From the IMG/VR virus record IMGVR_UViG_2799113015_000003, positions 1-64,000 of that record: a stretch of DNA of 64,000 nt; one strand, given 5' to 3'. The notes under the pieces were generated by a model. That model was not told the origin of the DNA, did no database searches, and saw only the letters and a program-made list of their open reading frames with translations. Position 1 is the stretch's first letter. Every line of letters starts with the position of its first letter. The translations under genes were made by a program, and so were the position numbers. Shown in pieces: positions 1 through 15,290 of this stretch. Origin of the DNA: a virus (Duplodnaviria > Heunggongvirae > Uroviricota > Caudoviricetes).

Positions 1-250
1 ATGAGTGAGCCTGAAGTGGTTGCTTACGAAATGCGTCCGTACGACAGATACTATGCGGGATGGATTCTGGCTATGTCGCGGTCACCACGGGTCACTGCCG
101 AGCGGATGCGGGAAGTGATCGCAGACGCGAAGGTAAGAATTGCCCGGTATCAACTAACCCATACCAACTAATAGAGAGGCACGTGAACCCATTGCGTGAC
201 TCACAGGAGCAATTCTGTGGGTTGCGTTGTGTGCTCACGACACACAATCC

Positions 251-267
251 ACACACGGAAGGGATTA
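251..267 (+). promoter_or_regulatory. start-associated conserved motif (ACACACGGAAGGGATTA) 3 nt upstream of ATG 271
   Basis: One of nine copies of the motif consensus CACACGGAAGGGATAC seen directly upstream of start codons; contains a purine-rich SD-like core GGAAGGGA. Confidence 0.6.
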
Positions 268-270
268 GAA

Positions 271-804
271 ATGGAATTCACAGAAGTTTACAACGAAAAC
301 GGTGTGGCCATTATCGCTGTAAATGATCGCGGCGTCAGTGGTAAAGCCACAGTATCGCTCTATGTTCATGTGCCTAGGCATGACAACGACAATGAGTTTG
401 TGACCCCTGCTGTCCATATTCGATTCAATGGACGCGTGACAATTAACAATAAGGACTACGACGCATGGCGGTGCAGCGCAGATTACGCGCCTGGCCGCTG
501 GGGCGGAACTGAACGCAAGGTGTTGACCGACAAGGGATTTAAGAAAGTCCACTACTCGCCCAGTGCGGGTGGGTCATTTCGCGAACTCACAGATAGCGCG
601 CGAAAGAAACTTGAACAGCTCGCAACCGTTGTAGCCGATCGATACCTAACGACCGAAGCGTCTAAGGCGGTGATCGTTGACGCGGCCAAGTACAAGGTAG
701 CGACCGCCATCAGCGAGAAAGAAAAGGCTGAGGTTGAAGTTCAAGAACGCGTTGCCGATTTGGACAGCGCGCGTGCCTATCTCGCACAAATGGAACAACT
801 CTAA
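271..804 (+). CDS. hypothetical protein (start set at the motif-associated ATG inside ORF 196..804)
   Basis: In-frame ATG at 271 (MEFTEVYNENG...) lies 3 nt after the conserved motif; the 178-aa ORF ends at 804. Confidence 0.5.
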   Translation: MEFTEVYNENGVAIIAVNDRGVSGKATVSLYVHVPRHDNDNEFVTPAVHIRFNGRVTINNKDYDAWRCSADYAPGRWGGTERKVLTDKGFKKVHYSPSAGGSFRELTDSARKKLEQLATVVADRYLTTEASKAVIVDAAKYKVATAISEKEKAEVEVQERVADLDSARAYLAQMEQL

Positions 805-877
805 GCGTATTGCTCGCTTCAGTCGGGCGCGGATTCTATCCGTGTCCGGTTGTGGCAATCAATCACGGGATTGCCTA

Positions 878-893
878 CACACGGAAGGGATAC
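878..893 (+). promoter_or_regulatory. start-associated conserved motif (CACACGGAAGGGATAC)
   Basis: Exact consensus copy; ATG at 896. Confidence 0.6.
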
Positions 894-895
894 GC

Positions 896-1480
896 ATGTC
901 AAAGAATCGGAAGTCTGACAGCCTCTCAGTTGACGAGATGGCCGATCGCCTCTATTCGATCTGGCAGAGCGCAGAACCGTGGCAGCACGATTCAGGTACT
1001 AAGTGGTATGACGCCGCCCGGCAGTGGGTTATTGAGGCTGCGGAACGTCACAACGTCAGTAATGAGGTGGTGGCCGGTGTTATCGCGGCCTACTCACCAC
1101 AGACCCGATGGGTAGACAACCTGCGGGATGCTGAGTATCACTTAGCGGGTTCTCCCCTGCGCTCTGGAGTGATGGGGGCGAACGTTCGTCGTGCCGCTGC
1201 TGTCATTGAGCAGGGACTAGATGGGCTAGGTAACGGACCCAAGGTTAAAGCGTTCGCGCGCAACATCCTTGGAGATACTGACGCTGTCACTGTAGATGTA
1301 TGGGCAGCACGGGCTGCATTCGGCACAATGGACAAAGCCGTTGCTGCACGAACGATTGCGTGGGTTGGTGCCTATGACAAGGTGGCCGACGCATACCGCA
1401 AGGCCGCTGCCAATGCTGGTGTTCCTGCCTCTGTTATGCAGGCAACCGTTTGGGTAGCCATTAGAGGCAAAGCCGAATAG
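896..1480 (+). CDS. hypothetical protein, 194 aa
   Basis: ATG at 896 (MSKNRKSDSLSV...) 2 nt after the motif, in frame with ORF 734..1480. Confidence 0.5.
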   Translation: MSKNRKSDSLSVDEMADRLYSIWQSAEPWQHDSGTKWYDAARQWVIEAAERHNVSNEVVAGVIAAYSPQTRWVDNLRDAEYHLAGSPLRSGVMGANVRRAAAVIEQGLDGLGNGPKVKAFARNILGDTDAVTVDVWAARAAFGTMDKAVAARTIAWVGAYDKVADAYRKAAANAGVPASVMQATVWVAIRGKAE

Positions 1481-1495
1481 TTCTAGATAGGCAGA

Positions 1496-1547
1496 GTGGG
1501 TCGCGAGTCTTTCTCGCGGCCCGCTTGGTGTATCTAGCACCAAAACA
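1496..1547 (+). repeat. conserved ~50-nt intergenic element (copy A) containing the imperfect hairpin GCGAGTCTTTCTCGC and the shared segment CGCGGCCCGC...TGTATCTAGC
   Basis: Aligns with copy B at 2744-2798 (GTCTTT(T)C(T)CGCGGCCCGC ... TGTAT(C/T)TAGC); both sit about 50 nt upstream of a start-associated motif. Confidence 0.45.
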
Positions 1548-1591
1548 TCCTATGACCTGCATCGATTGGGTGCGTGGTCGGATGGTTTCAC

Positions 1592-1607
1592 CACACGGAA
1601 GGGATAC
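1592..1607 (+). promoter_or_regulatory. start-associated conserved motif (CACACGGAAGGGATAC)
   Basis: Exact consensus; ATG at 1613. Confidence 0.6.
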
Positions 1608-1612
1608 AAACT

Positions 1613-2653
1613 ATGTCTGCTGAAATCGACAACGCAAACGGTGTCTACATGTACACCGACTCCCGTAATGATGCCTGGCATCAGCTGGGGCAGCGGGTCG
1701 GGCGCACTATGACAGCTGAGGAGGTTCTCAGCGCGTCGCACCTAGCTGGTTGGGACGTACGGAAGATGCCTATCAACATCCCGCAAGACCCAATCATCAA
1801 TATGGATGGGGTTACTACTCCACCTGCGATCGTCGTGCCCGACAGGTATGCAACAGTACGAACCAACCCGATTACCAAGGAGATTGACTACCTCGGGATT
1901 GTTGGCGATCGGTATGAGCCGGTGCAGAACGAGGCATCATGCGATCTGTTGAACGCCATTGTGGACGAGTCGGGTGCTCACTTCGAGACAGCCGGTGCGC
2001 TCTACAACGGTCGCCAAACGTTCGTAACCATGAAGCTACCCAAGGTGATGGATATCGCTGGTGCGAACGGTGTTACCGACCGTACCGAGTGGTATCTAGC
2101 ATCGCTCAACAGTCACGACGGCTCAAGTTCGGTGCGGGTGATCTTGACGGGTGTACGCATCGTGTGCGCCAATACTCAGCAGTGGGCGTTGAAGAGTGCA
2201 CGATCATCATTCTCTGTGCGCCACACCAAGAATGCTAAGGCGAACATTGCCGAAGCGCGGCGGCTGTTAGGTATCACCTGGCAGTCCATCGACAGTGTGG
2301 ACGCCGAGTTCCGGCGCATGGCTGAAGCTGAGATGTCCTTCATCGAAGCTGAGGAGTTTGTTCGTAAGCTGCTCAAGGCTGACGATGTTGAGCCAGGTAC
2401 GGCTGCGGCCACTCGTCGTGACAATGTCGCCAACAGCGTTCTCGATCTGTTCACCTCGTCGGAAACCATTGCGCCGGTGCGCGGTACACGTTATGCGTTG
2501 TACAACGCATTCACTGAGTATCAGGACCACTACGCAGCTGTTCGTGGAGCTGGTGGCCGGGATGCGGATGCGCGCGCACTGCGCACCATTCGCGACGCCG
2601 AGAGTGAGACCTCACTCAAGGCGCGTGCGTTCCGTGGCCTACAGCTGGTCTAA
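1613..2653 (+). CDS. hypothetical protein, 346 aa
   Basis: Long ORF; ATG 1613 (MSAEIDNANGVYMY...) 5 nt after the motif; no motif recognised with confidence. Confidence 0.55.
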   Translation: MSAEIDNANGVYMYTDSRNDAWHQLGQRVGRTMTAEEVLSASHLAGWDVRKMPINIPQDPIINMDGVTTPPAIVVPDRYATVRTNPITKEIDYLGIVGDRYEPVQNEASCDLLNAIVDESGAHFETAGALYNGRQTFVTMKLPKVMDIAGANGVTDRTEWYLASLNSHDGSSSVRVILTGVRIVCANTQQWALKSARSSFSVRHTKNAKANIAEARRLLGITWQSIDSVDAEFRRMAEAEMSFIEAEEFVRKLLKADDVEPGTAAATRRDNVANSVLDLFTSSETIAPVRGTRYALYNAFTEYQDHYAAVRGAGGRDADARALRTIRDAESETSLKARAFRGLQLV

Positions 2654-2743
2654 CGGAAATGCATATTGATGCGGGATGGGTGGTCGCGTGGCTTATCTGC
2701 GCGGCCATCTACCTAGTCCAGTACCGGAGAGCTAAATAGGGAG

Positions 2744-2798
2744 GGTGGGACGCGAAGGGGTGCAAGTCTTTTCGCGGCCCGCCCGCTGTATTTAGCAG
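2744..2798 (+). repeat. conserved ~50-nt intergenic element (copy B)
   Basis: GGGACGCGAAGGGGTGCAAGTCTTTTCGCGGCCCGCCCGCTGTATTTAGC aligns with copy A at 1496-1547. Confidence 0.45.
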
Positions 2799-2800
2799 CA

Positions 2801-2816
2801 CACACGGAAGGGATAC
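2801..2816 (+). promoter_or_regulatory. start-associated conserved motif (CACACGGAAGGGATAC)
   Basis: Exact consensus; ATG at 2819. Confidence 0.6.
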
Positions 2817-2818
2817 CA

Positions 2819-3061
2819 ATGACAACTATCGCGGCACGCCCGTTAAATGTGATCGCGGACGAGATTAAAAGGGATTGGATTAAACCGTTTTACGGCGCTG
2901 TCCCCTACTTGGATGCCATGGCTGCGCTCGGTGATATCGATGAGCGTTACGGGTGTGACTCTGCCGAGTCCATCGTTCTAGGCTTCCTGGCCAACTCTGG
3001 CAGCTGGCGCGGCAAGGTGGCGTGTCGGATCAAGAAGGAACTGACAGACATCCTGGGCTGA
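2819..3061 (+). CDS. hypothetical protein, 80 aa
   Basis: ORF begins 2 nt after the motif. Confidence 0.5.
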   Translation: MTTIAARPLNVIADEIKRDWIKPFYGAVPYLDAMAALGDIDERYGCDSAESIVLGFLANSGSWRGKVACRIKKELTDILG

Positions 3062-3100
3062 ACAGGGAGCTGTCGTACGTCTGCTGTATTCAGGCAGCAA

Positions 3101-3116
3101 TACACGGAAGGGGTAC
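3101..3116 (+). promoter_or_regulatory. start-associated conserved motif (TACACGGAAGGGGTAC variant)
   Basis: 14 of 16 nt match the consensus; ATG at 3119. Confidence 0.55.
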
Positions 3117-3118
3117 GA

Positions 3119-3325
3119 ATGCATACATCCAGCATTCTGGGGACCAAGGGTGAGGGCGTCATGTGGCAGGGCCCTGGCCGACTGAAGTATGACGAGGCCT
3201 ATAAGGAAGCCTCTGACCACGCTCTTTACTGGTTTGGCCGGAAGAGCGGTGAGGTGTCTGTGGACGAAACTAAGATCATCCACAACGGGGTTCACATTGC
3301 AAACATCCTGGTAGAGAGGATCTAG
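3119..3325 (+). CDS. hypothetical protein, 68 aa
   Basis: ORF begins 2 nt after the motif. Confidence 0.5.
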   Translation: MHTSSILGTKGEGVMWQGPGRLKYDEAYKEASDHALYWFGRKSGEVSVDETKIIHNGVHIANILVERI

Positions 3326-3362
3326 ACCATGGTAAATCGCACTGAAGAGCGGGTGACATTCC

Positions 3363-3686
3363 TTGGGGACATCTTGGACGAGGGCATGGCAGCGGCTCGG
3401 GGCACACGAGCAGTCGTGGCACGTGCGAGATGACGGTACTAATGTCGTTGAATTCCTACCCGAGGGTGAGTCACCCGCAGCCACTGTTGACATTGACGTG
3501 GTTGCGCGAGGGCTGCGCCTTATCTGCGACGGCAAGGTTGAGCACTTCAACGCCGGATATGACGGTGCCACTCGCAGTCGCATCGCGGCGTACAACCGAA
3601 CTAACGGGGATGAGGCTGACGCGGACGCAATCGACTACGACTGCATCATTCAAGCAGGTTTGTTCGGTGAGATTGTCTATAGCTAA
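3363..3686 (+). CDS. hypothetical protein, 107 aa
   Basis: ORF in the same orientation as the surrounding array of small genes; ATGA overlap with the next ORF. Confidence 0.4.
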   Translation: MGTSWTRAWQRLGAHEQSWHVRDDGTNVVEFLPEGESPAATVDIDVVARGLRLICDGKVEHFNAGYDGATRSRIAAYNRTNGDEADADAIDYDCIIQAGLFGEIVYS

Positions 3687-3943
3687 TGAGCCTGAGTAGG
3701 CAGTTTAATACGGTTGGGGAGTCAATGATCATCCCCGCTATCCTCATCGCAGGTAGCGTAATACTCACTCCCCCAACAGCTCCCGACTGTGCACGATACG
3801 ATGTGTGCAAGTATCAGCCGGGATATAACGGGCCCCTCATGCCCACCTGGAACACTCCAGGTACGTATGGGGGCTGGACAACCAACCCGGTCTTGTGTGA
3901 CCCGGTCGAGTATCAGTGTCAGCAAGTAGTACCAGGAAACTAG
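3686..3943 (+). CDS. small Cys-rich secreted or membrane protein (possible start at ATG 3725)
   Basis: Hydrophobic N-terminus IIPAILIAGSVILTPP followed by cysteines; GGGGAGTCAATG RBS-like context at 3725. Confidence 0.35.
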   Translation: MSLSRQFNTVGESMIIPAILIAGSVILTPPTAPDCARYDVCKYQPGYNGPLMPTWNTPGTYGGWTTNPVLCDPVEYQCQQVVPGN

Positions 3944-3955
3944 AAAGGGGATTCA

Positions 3956-4153
3956 ATGGTTGAGGTGTTGGCAGAAGATCAGCGCAAAGGCAAGGGGTGG
4001 CGGCTCAAACTTGCCGCAGTCCCTCGGGTTGCCGATAGTGTTCAGATTGAGGGTAAAGACGCGGAGGTGAAGAGCGTCGTTTGGATACCTCAGCCAGACG
4101 AGTTCGCTGCAGTAGTTCAGGTCAGTCTGCCAGTAAAGGGCAGGATGCTGTGA
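3956..4153 (+). CDS. hypothetical protein, 65 aa
   Basis: ORF with GAAAGGGGATTCA upstream RBS-like sequence. Confidence 0.4.
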   Translation: MVEVLAEDQRKGKGWRLKLAAVPRVADSVQIEGKDAEVKSVVWIPQPDEFAAVVQVSLPVKGRML

Positions 4154-4368
4154 GAACTAAGCAATACCGCATCACGCTGAAGATGGATGACGGATTCACG
4201 AATGAAGCTGAGGGGGAAGACCTTCCGCAGCTCGTCACCACCACCAACGCACTCGCGGCGAGACATGGCGGCGAAGACGTTCACGACTACTTAGACGAGA
4301 ACGGATCAATCATCTATACACGCAAGGGTAAGACAATCGGACGGGCTGACGTAACGCCAGTCATCTAA
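4150..4368 (+). CDS. hypothetical protein, ~72 aa (GTG start overlapping the preceding stop)
   Basis: In-frame GTG at 4150 in GTGA overlap with the stop of 3956..4153, preceded by AAGGGCAGGA. Confidence 0.35.
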   Translation: MRTKQYRITLKMDDGFTNEAEGEDLPQLVTTTNALAARHGGEDVHDYLDENGSIIYTRKGKTIGRADVTPVI

Positions 4369-4385
4369 CACATCTGAATACGGAG

Positions 4386-4432
4386 GAGCCGCAGCGGGAG
4401 TCATTCTCGTTGCGGCTCTGCTGTTTTCAGCA
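4386..4432 (+). terminator. putative intrinsic terminator
   Basis: Inverted repeat GAGCCGCAGCG...CGTTGCGGCTC followed by TGCTGTTTTCAG. Confidence 0.4.
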
Positions 4433-4475
4433 CACAGGGCATGGGACTCACGAACCCATGCCCTTTTTCTATGCC

Positions 4476-4490
4476 CAGAGGAAGGGAACG
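4476..4490 (+). promoter_or_regulatory. start-associated motif variant (CAGAGGAAGGGAACG)
   Basis: GGAAGGGA core retained; ATG at 4492. Confidence 0.45.
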
Positions 4491-4491
4491 C

Positions 4492-4959
4492 ATGTTATTG
4501 GAAGGTTGGACATCAACGCCGGTTGAATACGAACGCCTCACTCGCGCTGAGGTAGTCGAGCACGAGCGCTACTGGGCCGAGATGGTTCTCAAGGCGCGAA
4601 GCCTACGGCGCAAGTATGACCGCGCGGTATGGCTGAAGGACACAAAACGGGCTGAGAGCCTCGCAGAGGCCCTGAGATCCCTTGGCCCATCCATGTTGTA
4701 CGCCCACGGACGTTGGGAGCGTCACGGGCGCTGGAACCGGTACTACCAAGTACGTGGTGGCGCTGTACACACCACGCTGACATGCCGGTGCATCAACGGG
4801 GAGACGGTACTAAACCCGCTACCCCAATTCGCCGGTAGGTCAAGGAAGTTCATCGCAGATCGGTACAAGCTGTGCCGACACTGCGGGGACACCCACACGG
4901 GCGACATTCCTGCTGATCGAGCCTATCGGTCGTTCAAAGCCTACCTGCTCATTACCTAA
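4492..4959 (+). CDS. hypothetical protein with C-terminal Cys-rich (zinc-ribbon-like) region, 155 aa
   Basis: Start placed at the motif-associated ATG 4492 inside ORF 4441..4959; C-terminus carries CRCING...CRHCGDTH. Confidence 0.45.
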   Translation: MLLEGWTSTPVEYERLTRAEVVEHERYWAEMVLKARSLRRKYDRAVWLKDTKRAESLAEALRSLGPSMLYAHGRWERHGRWNRYYQVRGGAVHTTLTCRCINGETVLNPLPQFAGRSRKFIADRYKLCRHCGDTHTGDIPADRAYRSFKAYLLIT

Positions 4960-5004
4960 AGCGCGGTCTGACCTGCATTAAGTGGGTCGGGTTTACGTTC
5001 TGAA

Positions 5005-5023
5005 TACACGAAGGAAGGGATAC
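5005..5023 (+). promoter_or_regulatory. start-associated conserved motif (ACACGAAGGAAGGGATAC)
   Basis: Consensus with a 3-nt insertion; followed by ATG 5029 of a 26-codon mini-ORF. Confidence 0.5.
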
Positions 5024-5105
5024 CCAAAATGTTCGAAGAGGAAGAGATCGATTACGGCCCCGAGTGGTGGGGTGACTACCTCCAGGAGTCAGGGAGGTTG
5101 GCCCA

Positions 5106-5300
5106 GTGAAGTGCTCAATCAGCTACTGCTGGGAGGACTCCGTGTCCAAAGAGATGTGCGCACATCACTACCAGCAGAACTACAAGCGGGACACGCGAGG
5201 CGATCGACGCAACCGGTCACGGCTCGCTAAGCGTCTGGAGGCTAAGGGTTTCAAGGTCTCTCAGGAGTACTTAGAGCAGCGATTGGCTGGCCTACGGTGA
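5106..5300 (+). CDS. hypothetical protein, 64 aa (GTG start)
   Basis: ORF begins at a GTG overlapping the stop of the 26-codon mini-ORF 5029..5109. Confidence 0.35.
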   Translation: MKCSISYCWEDSVSKEMCAHHYQQNYKRDTRGDRRNRSRLAKRLEAKGFKVSQEYLEQRLAGLR

Positions 5301-5572
5301 GCGCGCCAGCCACTCGGGATGTGCGCTACTGGTACGAGCTTGGTAGACGCACCCTGAGTCCCGGGACAGAGGTGTCCATTAAGGGCAAGACTGGCCGGTT
5401 CCGGTTCCAGTACTGGCGGCACACCAGCTCTGGCATGGATGAACTCACGTTCGTCGGTGGGCCGCTACATGGACAGGGAGAGCGTTACGTCTCGGTCTAC
5501 CCCGAGCGTGTTACCCGGGTGCATCGAATCAACAAGACACTGACCAACATTCAGAAGGAGAAGCGCAAGTGA
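5297..5572 (+). CDS. hypothetical protein, 91 aa
   Basis: ORF with 4-nt overlap to the upstream gene. Confidence 0.4.
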   Translation: MSAPATRDVRYWYELGRRTLSPGTEVSIKGKTGRFRFQYWRHTSSGMDELTFVGGPLHGQGERYVSVYPERVTRVHRINKTLTNIQKEKRK

Positions 5573-5742
5573 GCGCCACGGTACTGGAGGCGCGGTGGCT
5601 CACGAAAGGCCACTACCTACCCGTGTATGCGGAATCGGTGGCTGAGGTGGTTCAGCTGGAGGACTTTGTCGTCGTGACGTTCGCCAGCGACCTGCCAGTG
5701 AAGGTCTTCCACGAAACCGACAAGGTCGAGGTGTGGGAATGA
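5569..5742 (+). CDS. hypothetical protein, 57 aa (GTG start)
   Basis: GTGA overlap with the upstream stop and ATGA overlap with the downstream start; not in the ORF track because it is shorter than 60 aa. Confidence 0.3.
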   Translation: MSATVLEARWLTKGHYLPVYAESVAEVVQLEDFVVVTFASDLPVKVFHETDKVEVWE

Positions 5743-5933
5743 GGTACTGCCCCACTCCCGACAAGAAGTCATATGTCAACAAAGGTGTAGCACTTCGAGC
5801 GGTTACCAGGATCCGCAAGAACAGTAGGACAAGGCACAACAAGAAGCGCTACATACCGGTGGAGCCGTACGTCTGCACATGCGGCGAATACCACCTCTGC
5901 ACTGCCGACAAAGCGAAGTTCAAACGCAAGTAG
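5739..5933 (+). CDS. small basic Cys-containing protein, 64 aa
   Basis: ATG 5739 preceded by GAGGTGTGGG; sequence MRYCPTPDKK...CTCGEYHLC; last gene before the integrase. Confidence 0.4.
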   Translation: MRYCPTPDKKSYVNKGVALRAVTRIRKNSRTRHNKKRYIPVEPYVCTCGEYHLCTADKAKFKRK

Positions 5934-5939
5934 AGAAGA

Positions 5940-5975
5940 GGGTCAGCCCACATGGGTTGGCCCTTTTCTTTTACC
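5940..5975 (+). terminator. putative intrinsic terminator
   Basis: GGGTCAGCCCACATGGGTTGGCCC stem-loop followed by TTTTCTTTT. Confidence 0.4.
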
Positions 5976-6037
5976 CAGATCGTTAGCAGACCTAACCAAA
6001 TACCCACCCAATCATTCAGTCTCCTGCGGTATCATCT

Positions 6038-7438
6038 ATGACTATGCGAGCTGCCGTCTACCTGCGCCAATCAATGGATAGAGAAGGTGACGGACTAGCC
6101 GTCGAACGTCAGCGCGAAGACTGCCTGAGGATCTGCCGTGAGCGCGGCTGGGAACCCACTCAGTACGTCGACAACGACACTAGCGCCAGCAAGGGCCGTC
6201 GACCGTCGTATGAGCGCATGCTCGCTGATATACGCAGTGGTCGCATTGATGCCGTAGTGGTGTGGGATCTTGACCGCCTACATCGTCAGCCCAAGGAGCT
6301 CGAGCAGTTCATTGAGTTGGCCGACGAGAAGCGGCTAGCGCTGGCCACTGTAGGCGGGGACGCTGATCTCTCCACCGATAACGGTCGGCTGTTCGCGCGC
6401 ATCAAAGGCGCGGTGGCCAGGGCTGAGGTGGAGCGGAAGTCAGCAAGGCAGAAGCGCGCATTTCTCCAGATGGCCCAATCTGGTAAAGGCTGGGGCCCGC
6501 GCGCATTCGGATACAACGGTGACCATGACAAGCCGAAGATCATCCTCAAGGAGGCTGAGGCCCTGAGGCGTGGCTACAAGATGCTCCTGTCGGGCGAAAC
6601 CCTCTATTCAGTTGCAAAACACTGGAATGACGCTGGCCTGAAGACCCCCCGGGGGAACCTGTTCAACGGAACCACGGTGCGCCGGATTCTTCAGAACCCG
6701 CGCTACGCAGCTGTGCGCACCTACCACGATGAAGTCGTGGGCGAGGGTAAGTGGCCTGCGATCATTGACGAGACCACCTGGCAGGCTGTGAATGCCCTCC
6801 TTAGCGACCCATCACGCCATCAGCCGCGCCAGGTTCGTAAGTACGTCCTCGGCGGCCTACTCACCTGCAGCGAGTGTGGCCACAAGATGTCTGTGGGCGT
6901 ACAGCACCGGAAAGAGGGGAATGTCCCCATCTACCGGTGCAAGCACGTCAGCTGCGGCAAGGTCACCCGACGTGTTGAGCGTATGGATGAATGGGTGAGG
7001 GAGATTGTCCTGCGCAGAATGTCGAGTCGGCATTGGGTTCCCGGCAATCAGGACAACCGGGAAAGGGCCCTCCAGCTACGGGAAGAGTTGGACACAATCA
7101 AGCAGCGAATGGACTCCCTCGCAATCGATTTCGCTGACGGAGAACTCACCGCAAGCCAGATGCGTATCGCTAATGAGCGCATGCAGGCGAAGCTGGATGA
7201 CGTTGAGGACAAGCTGCGTCGAACCAATGTGCGGCCAATCCCCGATGGGATTCTCACCGCGAAGGACCGTGGCAAGTTTTACGACGACCAGATGTCTCTG
7301 GATGCGAAACGAGCCCTCATTGAGGCCTTATGCAACTCGATTGTCGTGCATCCCCTTAACCTCAAGGGCCGCAGTGCTTCCCAGGCTCCGCTCGGGCATA
7401 ACATCGATGTCCACTGGCACAAGCCCAGTAATGGCTGA
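6038..7438 (+). CDS. int: large serine recombinase (serine integrase)
   Basis: N-terminal resolvase-type catalytic domain (AAVYLRQSMDREGDGLAVERQRE...); 466 aa with a Cys-rich zinc-ribbon and coiled-coil C-terminal region typical of phage serine integrases. Confidence 0.9.
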   Translation: MTMRAAVYLRQSMDREGDGLAVERQREDCLRICRERGWEPTQYVDNDTSASKGRRPSYERMLADIRSGRIDAVVVWDLDRLHRQPKELEQFIELADEKRLALATVGGDADLSTDNGRLFARIKGAVARAEVERKSARQKRAFLQMAQSGKGWGPRAFGYNGDHDKPKIILKEAEALRRGYKMLLSGETLYSVAKHWNDAGLKTPRGNLFNGTTVRRILQNPRYAAVRTYHDEVVGEGKWPAIIDETTWQAVNALLSDPSRHQPRQVRKYVLGGLLTCSECGHKMSVGVQHRKEGNVPIYRCKHVSCGKVTRRVERMDEWVREIVLRRMSSRHWVPGNQDNRERALQLREELDTIKQRMDSLAIDFADGELTASQMRIANERMQAKLDDVEDKLRRTNVRPIPDGILTAKDRGKFYDDQMSLDAKRALIEALCNSIVVHPLNLKGRSASQAPLGHNIDVHWHKPSNG

Positions 7439-7521
7439 GATCCGCGACAACTGCGACTGAGTGAGTGGCGGCGCATCGCCCAGGATCCTGGCGAAGATCG
7501 CCTCGTCTTCGTCTGACCATT

Positions 7522-7762
7522 TCATCGAGGTAGTGCCCCATCCACTCGCTTCATGACTTCAGCGACGAGCGCCCATGACCCATCCGAATATCGGTGGTGC
7601 AGCGTGCCTGACGCGCTGGCCTTCGGGATCTTCGTACCGTCAAGTAGTGTTGCCTCGCGCTGCTCCGCTTCCCATCGGTAGACGTATGCACTACCACGGT
7701 CTGGGTTGAACATCTCCTGGCGGGTGATGAAAACCTCCCCAATAACCCTGCTATTAAGCATT
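7522..7762 (-). CDS. hypothetical protein, ~80 aa
   Basis: ORF downstream of the phosphoesterase gene, start trimmed to an internal ATG to avoid overlap; weak RBS. Confidence 0.3.
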
Positions 7763-7772
7763 ATTGGAATGA

Positions 7773-8474
7773 CTAGCACTTTTGATCCTCCAGCTCCTGA
7801 ACGATCGCCACAATCTGATCGAGCGCCACGGGCCTGTAGTCCCACGCGTCGAGGCCGACGTGAATCTGATTGATACGTGCTGGTTTGTTGCGCAGCGCAG
7901 CGCCACGCCGCTTAGCCTCCCGGCCACCGATACTCAGCTTCTCCGGGCTATGCGTGTGGCCATGCAGGATGTAGTGCCCATAGTCCGGCAAACGCCACTC
8001 GGGATAGCGGTCCTCATCCGTGTGGTCGCCCGTGTACGGGAAGTGAGACAGCATCGCGGTTGTATGGCCATCTCTCAAGGGAATTCGAACTTTCGCGGCC
8101 AACTGCACACACTCGAATGGTGCAGGCCGGTCAGGTTGATCCTGGCCAAGATAGATGGGCAACCACTTATGCGAGTCGCGGTGCAAAGGATGTGTGCCAC
8201 AATGATTCCCTGGAATACCGCGCTTGCGGCCAGGGCGAGCACGTAGCCAATCTAGGGCCCTCAATTGCGCTGTCTTGGTACCGGACGAAATGTCACCCAA
8301 CACCCACACGACATCGTCAGGCGCAACCATACTGTCCCAGTTACGGGCCAGCTGCGAGTCATGAGAGTCGATCTCCGCGCCTACGTATCGTGGTAGCACC
8401 CATCCGCGAGTGCGTTCCCTGGCCACCTTCTCGTGGCCGATATGTAGGTCAGATGTGAACCACACCTTGCTCAT
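7773..8474 (-). CDS. calcineurin-like metallophosphoesterase
   Basis: Motifs DLHIGH, GDISSG, GNHC and GHTH, in the order characteristic of the metallophosphoesterase superfamily. Confidence 0.75.
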   Translation of the reverse strand: MSKVWFTSDLHIGHEKVARERTRGWVLPRYVGAEIDSHDSQLARNWDSMVAPDDVVWVLGDISSGTKTAQLRALDWLRARPGRKRGIPGNHCGTHPLHRDSHKWLPIYLGQDQPDRPAPFECVQLAAKVRIPLRDGHTTAMLSHFPYTGDHTDEDRYPEWRLPDYGHYILHGHTHSPEKLSIGGREAKRRGAALRNKPARINQIHVGLDAWDYRPVALDQIVAIVQELEDQKC

Positions 8475-15214: not shown

Positions 15215-15290
15215 TATTGACGACGGGACTTGAACCCGCACATCCAGTTTCCAATAACTGGTGACCTACCGTTGGTCTACGCCATTCTCG
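15215..15290 (-). other. degenerate tRNA-like element
   Basis: Good T-arm ACGGG/ACTTGAA/CCCGC and an anticodon-like hairpin CCAGT/TTCCAATA/ACTGG with an 8-nt loop; no matching acceptor stem found. Confidence 0.25.

Follow-up and report, generated by a model that had tools for sequence, protein, structure and literature searches.

Covarying intergenic hairpins and start-associated motifs in a cluster M/MabI prophage of Mycobacterium abscessus

What are the two similar elements that stand between small genes near the beginning of this phage DNA, and do they work as DNA or as RNA? The DNA analysed here, called the window, is the stretch of 64,000 nucleotides (nt) from the IMG/VR virus record IMGVR_UViG_2799113015_000003. 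An original prediction had described in it a conserved hairpin element of about 50 nt, present twice and placed each time immediately 5′ of a motif-bearing gene start, and had suggested a composite regulatory module such as a terminator/antiterminator or an operator. Judged by sequence and structural homology, the two elements belong to the intergenic module of cluster M mycobacteriophages in which a stem-loop is followed by a conserved start-proximal repeat, here located in a MabI-type prophage. The reading we favour, which we regard as an even call, is that the hairpins serve as post-transcriptional punctuation between the cistrons of a polycistronic mRNA, with a role in processing or stability and in translation start.

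The hairpin family and its structure

The strings shared by the two elements are present as described, namely GGGTCGCGA (1498-1506) and GGGACGCGA (2747-2755), GTCTTTCTCGCGGCCCGC (1507-1524) and GTCTTTTCGCGGCCCGC (2766-2782), and TGTATCTAGC (1529-1538) and TGTATTTAGC (2787-2796). A repeat search returns a direct repeat of 32 nt with 81% identity (1511-1542/2769-2800), which covers the 3′ halves of both elements, and an inverted repeat of 26 nt within the second element (2731-2756/2771-2796). The predicted hairpin element is real but was drawn too short, as the full hairpins measure 55-66 nt and occupy positions 1483-1537 and 2731-2796. About 13 nt are added on the 5′ side of each, where CTAGATAGGCAGAG pairs with CTTGGTGTATCTAG and GCTAAATAGGGAGGG pairs with CCCGCTGTATTTAGC. 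TGTATYTAGC, previously taken for a separate box, is instead the 3′ foot of the stem and pairs with CTAGATA or GCTAAATA on the 5′ side. The single boxes TCGCGGCCCGC and TGTATYTAGCA are not enriched by themselves in the window; the signal resides in the combined architecture. Further copies were looked for and found, and the family hairpins of the window are the following.

1483-1537, + strand: family hairpin copy B (the first element); foot CTAGATA/TATCTAG; fold -40.8 kcal/mol, z -7.8
2731-2796, + strand: family hairpin copy D (the second element); foot GCTAAATA/TATTTAGC; fold -42.9 kcal/mol, z -6.0
4374-4430, + strand: family hairpin copy G; the same foot (CTGAATACGGAGG/TCTGCTGTTTTCAG) with an unrelated inner stem; inverted repeat; fold -38.7 kcal/mol
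3055-3104, + strand: hairpin remnant; feet CTGAACAGGGAG ... TGCTGTATTCAG kept, most of the inner stem deleted
180-246, + strand: divergent long hairpin before the first start motif; weak family match

The z scores compare RNA folds with dinucleotide shuffles, and copies B and D rank among the most stable 70-nt windows of the whole 64 kb. All copies are located in the first 4.5 kb of the window, on the + strand and in the orientation of transcription.

The relatives of this DNA were identified by megablast of the first 8 kb, which showed 96% identity to the M. abscessus prophages prophiT49-2 and prophi86-1 and 84.5% to prophiGD54-2, and no records beyond these three. Their taxonomy is Vilmaviridae, Mclasvirinae, and MabI prophages have been grouped with the cluster M mycobacteriophages (Dedrick et al. 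2021, PMC8092301). On these sequence grounds the window is assigned to a cluster M/MabI prophage of M. abscessus. The 96% identity, the Mclasvirinae taxonomy and the presence of a serine integrase all point to a genome of the cluster M type (about 80 kb, with a large tRNA array and tmRNA and a serine integrase). When the region was searched by megablast and blastn, only the three MabI prophages shared it on the DNA level, and more distant matches cover only the DUF932 gene and the 80-aa gene.

The family was collected by folding the 110 nt upstream of every start motif in the window and in its relatives, by a pattern search and by a symmetric stem finder. Its foot is conserved (CUGAAUAGGSAGGR on the 5′ side, YCUGSUGUAUUCAG on the 3′ side) and its inner stem is free to vary; the stems contain 22-31 pairs with 2-4 single mismatches and carry loops of 3-13 nt. 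A 39-nt query made of foot and motif matched the M. smegmatis cluster M phages MrMagoo, Estes and GardenSalsa, in which the start-proximal motif is CACACGGAGAAGGGAA. When the intergenic regions of these phages and of Bongo were folded, the same module was found at nearly every junction of the equivalent block. The idea of a composite module, an imperfect inverted repeat followed by a start motif, was therefore right and holds generally, with about 5-7 copies in each MabI prophage and about 10-13 per genome in phages such as Bongo and MrMagoo.

Two covariance models were used to ask for homology, one built from all members (R1) and one built from 16 Bongo and MrMagoo members only (R2). In the whole 64-kb window, searched on both strands, R2 finds exactly four sites and no match elsewhere: copy G, which is the best match (4371-4440, E 3.4e-12), copy D (2729-2805, E 4.6e-11), copy B (E 1.8e-10; model matches at 1480-1547, with 70.9 bits for R1) and the remnant (3055-3103, E 5.9e-5). 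Chance is excluded for the three intact copies, since a model made from other phages alone recovers them with E values of 1.8e-10 to 3.4e-12, and it is through R2 that homology in sequence and structure to the reference cluster M stem-loops is established. The remnant, a site outside both seed alignments, is also matched by R1 (E 1.4e-5). R1 adds to these sites only the weak match at 180-246 (20.8 bits, E 0.004), which is not recovered by R2. Rfam covariance models gave no match with E up to 1 in window positions 1-8000. Two scans of species-representative genomes with patterns of hairpin foot and motif returned zero matches and one chance match, in an archaeal metagenome-assembled genome, and the MabI form is therefore not found in species-representative genomes.

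The orthologue of copy D in prophiGD54-2 carries compensatory changes, and the orthologue of the remnant is intact there (4050-4111). The remnant itself has lost its inner stem by an internal deletion and has retained the feet, the start motif and the small hairpin P3 described below, which makes it a natural "hairpin-less" allele.

To what extent is the hairpin a structure of RNA? The alignment comprised 35 distinct members from the window, T49-2, GD54-2, two IMG/VR prophages, MrMagoo and Bongo, and it is ungapped along both arms. In the 23-pair stem, 93.9% of the cells are standard pairs, compared with 70.0% after shuffling, and changes on both sides are present in 20 of the 23 pairs. The covariation score is 0.722 against 0.250 for shuffled alignments, none of 500 of which reach it, and sliding the partners by 1-3 columns lowers it to at most 0.216. 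The sense strand is the more stable one in all 45 hairpins (mean -37.8 kcal/mol, antisense -24.3 kcal/mol), and long hairpins are found on the coding strand of the block rather than on the other strand (16 vs 1 in MrMagoo, 7 vs 0 in T49-2). The stability of the sense strand, the covariation and the bias to one strand therefore identify an RNA structure in the mRNA and not a palindromic DNA site.

The same evidence bears on roles at the level of DNA, either an operator for a dimeric repressor or a recombination joint for the exchange of gene cassettes. The inverted repeat has conserved ends, the gene content between modules varies among relatives, and an insert in T49-2 has its junction in the repeated start motif, all of which speaks for such a role. 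However, an operator would have equivalent half-sites at a fixed spacing and would be indifferent to strand, and none of this is seen. The two arms are not conserved alike, the 5′ one being purine-rich and the 3′ one carrying UGSUG; the distance between the feet varies while the variable inner stem covaries, the sense-specific stability found in 45 of 45 hairpins comes from G:U pairs, which form on that strand only, and every copy has a single orientation, that of transcription. The indel is simply explained by homologous recombination between repeats of 16-20 nt. We consider a role on the DNA level extremely improbable, and the operator of the original prediction is not borne out.

Stop codons, start motifs and the proposed role between cistrons

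Each hairpin is placed in close relation to the end of the preceding gene. In 40 of 42 distinct contexts the stop codon of the upstream open reading frame (ORF) begins between -9 and +6 relative to the hairpin's first base, and 25 of those contexts have it inside the foot, at position 2 or 6; the foot consensus CUGAAUAGG holds stops in two reading frames. In copy D, the TAG at 2737-2739 is located inside the 5′ foot and ends a small ORF of 26 codons. This ORF (2659-2739, +; MHIDAGWVVAWLICAAIYLVQYRRAK) begins 5 nt past the DUF932 stop, has a hydrophobic core and is absent from the three prophage annotations. The changes that it shows in T49-2 and GD54-2 are synonymous or conservative (V/I, A/V, A/S), and it probably encodes a real small membrane peptide.

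A conserved weak zone occupies positions 8-12 of the stem (G x G or C:G, G.U, S:S, A x G, G.U). Members were placed in register by a rule that called for A x G at position 11 and U at 3′ position 9, so the invariance of these letters is partly circular; the R2 search is an independent check that is free of this circularity. The 3′ strand of the weak zone, UGSUG, is perfectly complementary to CASCA, which follows just beyond the hairpin, and pairing of the two forms a small hairpin, P3, in all 36 distinct 3′ feet when these are folded alone. The mean energy of P3 is -6.7 kcal/mol, compared with -2.8 for shuffles. With the flank shuffled, or replaced by that of a member whose tetramer differs, it is -3.7 kcal/mol, and with a flank borrowed from a member that has the same tetramer it is -6.0 kcal/mol. 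The matching tetramers are GCUG/CAGC, GGUG/CACC, GGUC/GACC and GCUC/GAGC. P3 and the foot helix are mutually exclusive. A pseudoknot in which P3 and the 7-bp foot helix would exist together was considered and rejected on geometry, by reasoning and not by computation, as 0-3 nt are too short to span a helix of 7 bp. The P3 hairpins of the intact copies are listed here.

1526-1542, + strand: P3 of copy B; TGGTG (3′-arm positions 12-8) with CACCA past the hairpin; -7.3 kcal/mol
2785-2799, + strand: P3 of copy D; GCTG/CAGC; -6.4 kcal/mol
4419-4432, + strand: P3 of copy G; TGCTG/CAGCA; -5.7 kcal/mol

The start-associated motif, CACACGGAAGGGATAC, occurs five times in the window, and each occurrence ends 3-6 nt before an ATG. 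It is a long Shine-Dalgarno-like sequence, and as GGAAGGGA the motif is able to pair with the 3′ end of mycobacterial 16S rRNA, ...CCUCCUUUCU.

252-273, + strand: start motif CACACGGAAGGGATTA and ATG 271
878-898, + strand: start motif and ATG 896 of the DUF7178 gene; two non-family hairpins precede
1592-1615, + strand: start motif CACACGGAAGGGATAC and ATG 1613 of the DUF932 gene
2801-2821, + strand: start motif CACACGGAAGGGATAC and ATG 2819 of the 80-aa gene
3101-3121, + strand: start motif TACACGGAAGGGGTAC and ATG 3119

In most copies of the family the gap between hairpin and motif is 5-16 nt. The prediction that both elements stand immediately before a motif-bearing start is correct for the second, whose motif (2801-2816) starts 5 nt past the hairpin, and the remnant at 3055-3104 is likewise directly followed by its motif. 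It does not hold for the first element, which is 54 nt away from its motif (1592-1607) and is separated from it by an unrelated hairpin; copy G is followed by a terminator and not by a gene.

1546-1584, + strand: unrelated second hairpin between copy B and its motif

The type of this second hairpin, (C)TGACCTGCAT-CGAT/TAAG-TGGGTG..GGTC, recurs at 4965-4992 (+) before the gene at about 5029. It also opens the block in prophiGD54-2 (about 140-170) and in prophi86-1 (about 90-120), and related TGACCTG hairpins are present in MrMagoo and Bongo. It could be a further cluster M "CR" repeat. The motif at 878 is preceded at 809-877 (+) by two shorter non-family hairpins (824-848 and 851-877), which are conserved in GD54-2 and in the IMG/VR prophages.

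The 5′ arm of the hairpin is purine-rich and resembles the start motif, to which it is identical (ACACGGAGAAGGG) in two MrMagoo copies. At 5001-5031 (+; CTGAATACACGAAGGAAGGGATACCCAAAATG) the 5′-foot sequence of the family, CTGAATAC, passes directly into a start motif without a hairpin, and this supports a common origin of 5′ arm and motif. A general function of the 3′ arm as an "anti-motif" that sequesters the downstream motif was tried and rejected, since the mean z against shuffled arms is -0.95 and not significant overall; such pairing is convincing for some paralogue types only (null fraction 0.003-0.04).

What could a module of this kind do? The favoured reading, punctuation between cistrons, starts from family membership, RNA-level structure, position with respect to stop and start codons and the small alternative helix, and adds cleavage, stabilisation and an effect on translation as steps that we infer. 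The evidence supports a module that acts as RNA and in cis, on the polycistronic transcript of the block that leads towards the serine integrase. At a junction, a gene ends within or directly before the foot of the imperfect hairpin (22-30 bp), the motif follows, and the start codon stands 3-6 nt further on. The hairpin would give the upstream cistron a protected 3′ end. A double-strand-specific nuclease of the RNase III type would probably cut in the weak zone in the middle of the stem (G.U, A x G and G x G at positions 8-12), and the released 3′ foot would then fold into P3 at the new 5′ end, before an unstructured and strong ribosome-binding site. The hairpins have the build of RNase III sites of the T7 early type, namely an imperfect duplex of at least about 20 bp, a weak mid-stem and an intercistronic location. 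The host is an actinobacterium, and the specificity of its RNase III is little known.

Several points weigh against this reading. No transcript-end or cleavage data for cluster M or MabI phages were found in the literature examined, and for that reason processing is a matter of pure inference. Processing also leaves the purine-rich, motif-like 5′ arm and the stop codons within the foot unexplained. The motifs at 252 and 878 have other hairpins upstream, and the family hairpin is therefore not obligatory. The invariant A x G and G:U positions were in part imposed by the rule by which members were selected. The stems of P3 are only 4-6 bp long, and its support in fixed columns is modest (79.4% paired compared with 74.1%, and one covarying pair); there the signal is weakened by shifts of a few bases in the position of the partner.

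The embedded stop codons and the purine-rich 5′ arm are best explained by a switch driven by the ribosome. A ribosome that terminates at the stop would unwind the foot from position 1 to about 12, P3 would snap in, and the upper stem would persist and hold the stop codon and the next motif close together, so that the same ribosome or its 30S subunit could re-initiate across the hairpin. The location of the stop inside the foot or within 9 nt of it in 40 of 42 contexts is consistent with this, as are the construction of P3 from exactly the strand that would be set free and the Shine-Dalgarno-like character of the 5′ arm. The limit of the weak zone (A x G at 11, G.U at 12) fits the reach of a ribosome that stands on a stop at positions 2-8, a reach that is known in general from ribosome footprints. 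On the other hand, compact phage genomes would place a hairpin right behind the stop anyway, a ribosome on a stop at -7 to -17 would open little of the foot, and a hairpin of 60 nt is unnecessary for ordinary coupling. Furthermore, re-initiation across a stem has no known experimental precedent in bacteria, and copy G has both hairpin and P3 yet no gene before the terminator. As a whole, we judge the switch possible though rather unlikely.

In its strongest form, the switch would be a bistable RNA device run by the terminating ribosome, in which unwinding of the foot flips P3 and re-initiation takes place across a structured spacer of about 60 nt at each junction. We think this distinctly unlikely. 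If it were true, it would be a bacterial counterpart of ribosome shunting or of termination-reinitiation, repeated through a phage operon, and it could also explain the SAS/ESAS-type repeats of actinobacteriophages.

The conservation of the foot raises another option, that CUGAAUAGGSAGG/CUGSUGUAUUCAG with its fixed mismatches is the binding site of an RNA-binding regulator of phage or host, or of a small RNA, that switches the whole block together. The foot sequence is indeed kept across paralogues with unrelated inner stems and across the M1, M2 and MabI lineages, and its purine x purine mismatches stand at a fixed distance from the foot. However, the conserved letters on the 3′ side are also accounted for by P3, and no candidate protein was identified; the neighbouring genes encode DUF7178, DUF932 or products with no Pfam domain. 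We regard such a factor as improbable.

Termination and the gene block

The proposal that the elements are terminators or antiterminators can be compared with a true terminator in the same block, which was read from the sequence and folded; it had been missed by the scanner, whose loop limit is 8 nt.

4438-4471, + strand: canonical intrinsic terminator directly after copy G; GGGCATGGG, 9-nt loop, CCCATGCCC, then TTTTTCT; 9-bp G+C stem

This terminator divides the block in two, and operon ends elsewhere in the window likewise consist of a stem and a U-tract. The sequences after the stems of copies B and D (CACCAAAAC and AGCACACAC) contain no U-tract and so lack what defines an intrinsic terminator, and neither copy was reported by the terminator scan. 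The promoter scan found no promoter-like site in or after the hairpins, and its overall counts were below shuffle expectation; the 5-16 nt that separate hairpin and motif in most copies are too few to hold a new promoter. The absence of a U-tract, the lack of room for a promoter and the canonical terminator behind the copy at 4374-4430 are therefore the grounds on which both the terminator/antiterminator and the operator readings are rejected.

A weaker version would make the hairpins U-less ("I-shaped"), factor-independent terminators or attenuators that split the block into separate transcripts. Strong G+C-rich stems at gene ends would suit this version, and the scanner scores the inner stem of copy G together with GCTGTTTTCA as terminator-like. 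However, copies B and D have no U-tract, there is neither a promoter-like site nor space for one before the next gene, and a canonical terminator stands directly behind copy G, as stem and U-tract do at the other operon ends. Czyz et al. (2014, mBio) reportedly found that mycobacterial RNA polymerase needs a U-tract at intrinsic terminators. We hold this version to be very improbable, and the sub-mechanisms are ranked, in descending order, as processing or stability, the ribosome switch, a trans-acting RNA-binding factor, weak U-less terminators and roles on the DNA level.

The genes to which the modules belong, and the integrase towards which they lead, are as follows.

271-804, + strand: gene with no Pfam domain
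896-1480, + strand: DUF7178 gene; stop TAG 1478-1480
1613-2653, + strand: DUF932 gene
2819-3061, + strand: 80-aa gene
3119-3325, + strand: gene
6038-7438: serine integrase gene

The copies in the window all fall between 180 and 4430 on the + strand and stand upstream of the integrase gene. This strand corresponds to the reverse strand of the matched prophage records, and the elements therefore lie in the block of small genes that leads from the prophage end to the integrase. The arrangement, with repeats between the genes of a block that leads towards the integrase, is alike in T49-2, GD54-2, MrMagoo, Estes and Bongo.

Within this block the relatives differ in gene content. Compared with window positions 1542-1612, prophiT49-2 (2031-2760) has two extra genes (165 and 164) and a family hairpin; the insert sits between hairpin B and the DUF932 gene, and both of its junctions fall in the repeated start motif. 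Such an arrangement suggests that recombination between the repeats adds or removes gene cassettes. The slot upstream of hairpin B is filled in prophi86-1 by an ArdA-like anti-restriction gene (2074-2412), which hints that the block carries early anti-defence functions. Further along the window, the tRNA array includes a tRNA-like gene called by ARAGORN at 15215-15286 (-), the anticodon loop of which is irregular ("tRNA-???", anticodon "tg").

Comparison with known systems

Start-associated repeats with upstream inverted repeats have been catalogued since 2011 in the actinobacteriophage clusters K, M and EF without a demonstrated function. In cluster K, the SAS/ESAS repeats consist of a highly conserved motif that covers the ribosome-binding site in a subset of genes whose upstream gaps are unusually long (Pope et al. 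2011, PMC3203893). About half of the cluster K SAS follow an imperfect inverted repeat whose spacer varies; in the ESAS the arms are 17 bp and the spacer 4-13 bp, and the authors saw little support for an mRNA hairpin (PMC3203893). Similar SAS/ESAS are present in Microbacterium cluster EF phages (PMC7302621), and their function was still termed unverified in 2025 (PMC12699233). The modules described here share with those of cluster K a conserved motif at the ribosome-binding site and an imperfect inverted repeat upstream of it. They differ in that the sequences are unrelated and that the stems of 22-30 bp show strong covariation; each arm measures 22-30 nt around a loop of 3-13 nt, and it is a foot, not a 17-mer, that is conserved. 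The 13-nt SAS consensus of cluster K, GGGATAGGAGCCC, searched in the window with up to two mismatches, has two 2-mismatch matches, neither of them in the block, and 1.6 are expected by chance.

The early region of phage T7 contains repeated intercistronic RNase III hairpins (R0.3-R1.3) with an internal loop. Like them, the hairpins studied here are a paralogous intercistronic set in one operon, with about two helical turns and a weak zone in the middle of the stem. In both cases the hairpins stand just past a stop codon and just before a ribosome-binding site, and a true terminator, separate from them, closes the operon. Unlike the T7 hairpins, to which they have no sequence relationship, those of the window are only proposed to be cleaved by RNase III.

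Should the modules govern mRNA processing, stability or translational coupling, they would account for the way in which the block is expressed, including the ArdA-like gene of some relatives, and they could serve as portable punctuation parts for mycobacterial gene expression. If they are merely stabilising hairpins, the finding is an ordinary one.

The closest known system is that of the cluster M mycobacteriophages, for which the module has already been reported: conserved repeats CR3 and CR4 with upstream stem-loops were described by Pope et al. 2014 (J Virol 88:2461), as summarised in PMC7953290. Both systems belong to the Mclasvirinae lineage, both are found between the genes of a block beside the serine integrase, and both have the order stem-loop, repeat, start codon. 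The summary in PMC7953290 prints no consensus for CR3/CR4. The window copies are recovered by R2. The present case differs in being an integrated MabI prophage in the host M. abscessus, in its motif (CACACGGAAGGGATAC here, CACACGGAGAAGGGAA there) and in the number of copies, with three intact ones in the window against about 10-13. Two papers on M. abscessus prophages, one of them PMC8092301, do not mention such repeats for MabI. The window shows the cluster M version to be present in prophages of this pathogen as well. What is new here, with some overlap with the 2014 description possible, is the strong covariation in 20 of 23 pairs, the sense-specific stability that points to RNA, the stop codon within the foot and P3 in 36 of 36 distinct copies. 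The comparison of three lineages thereby supplies a set of testable features, namely a covarying RNA hairpin, a fixed weak zone in mid-stem, a stop codon in the foot and a competing hairpin by the ribosome-binding site.

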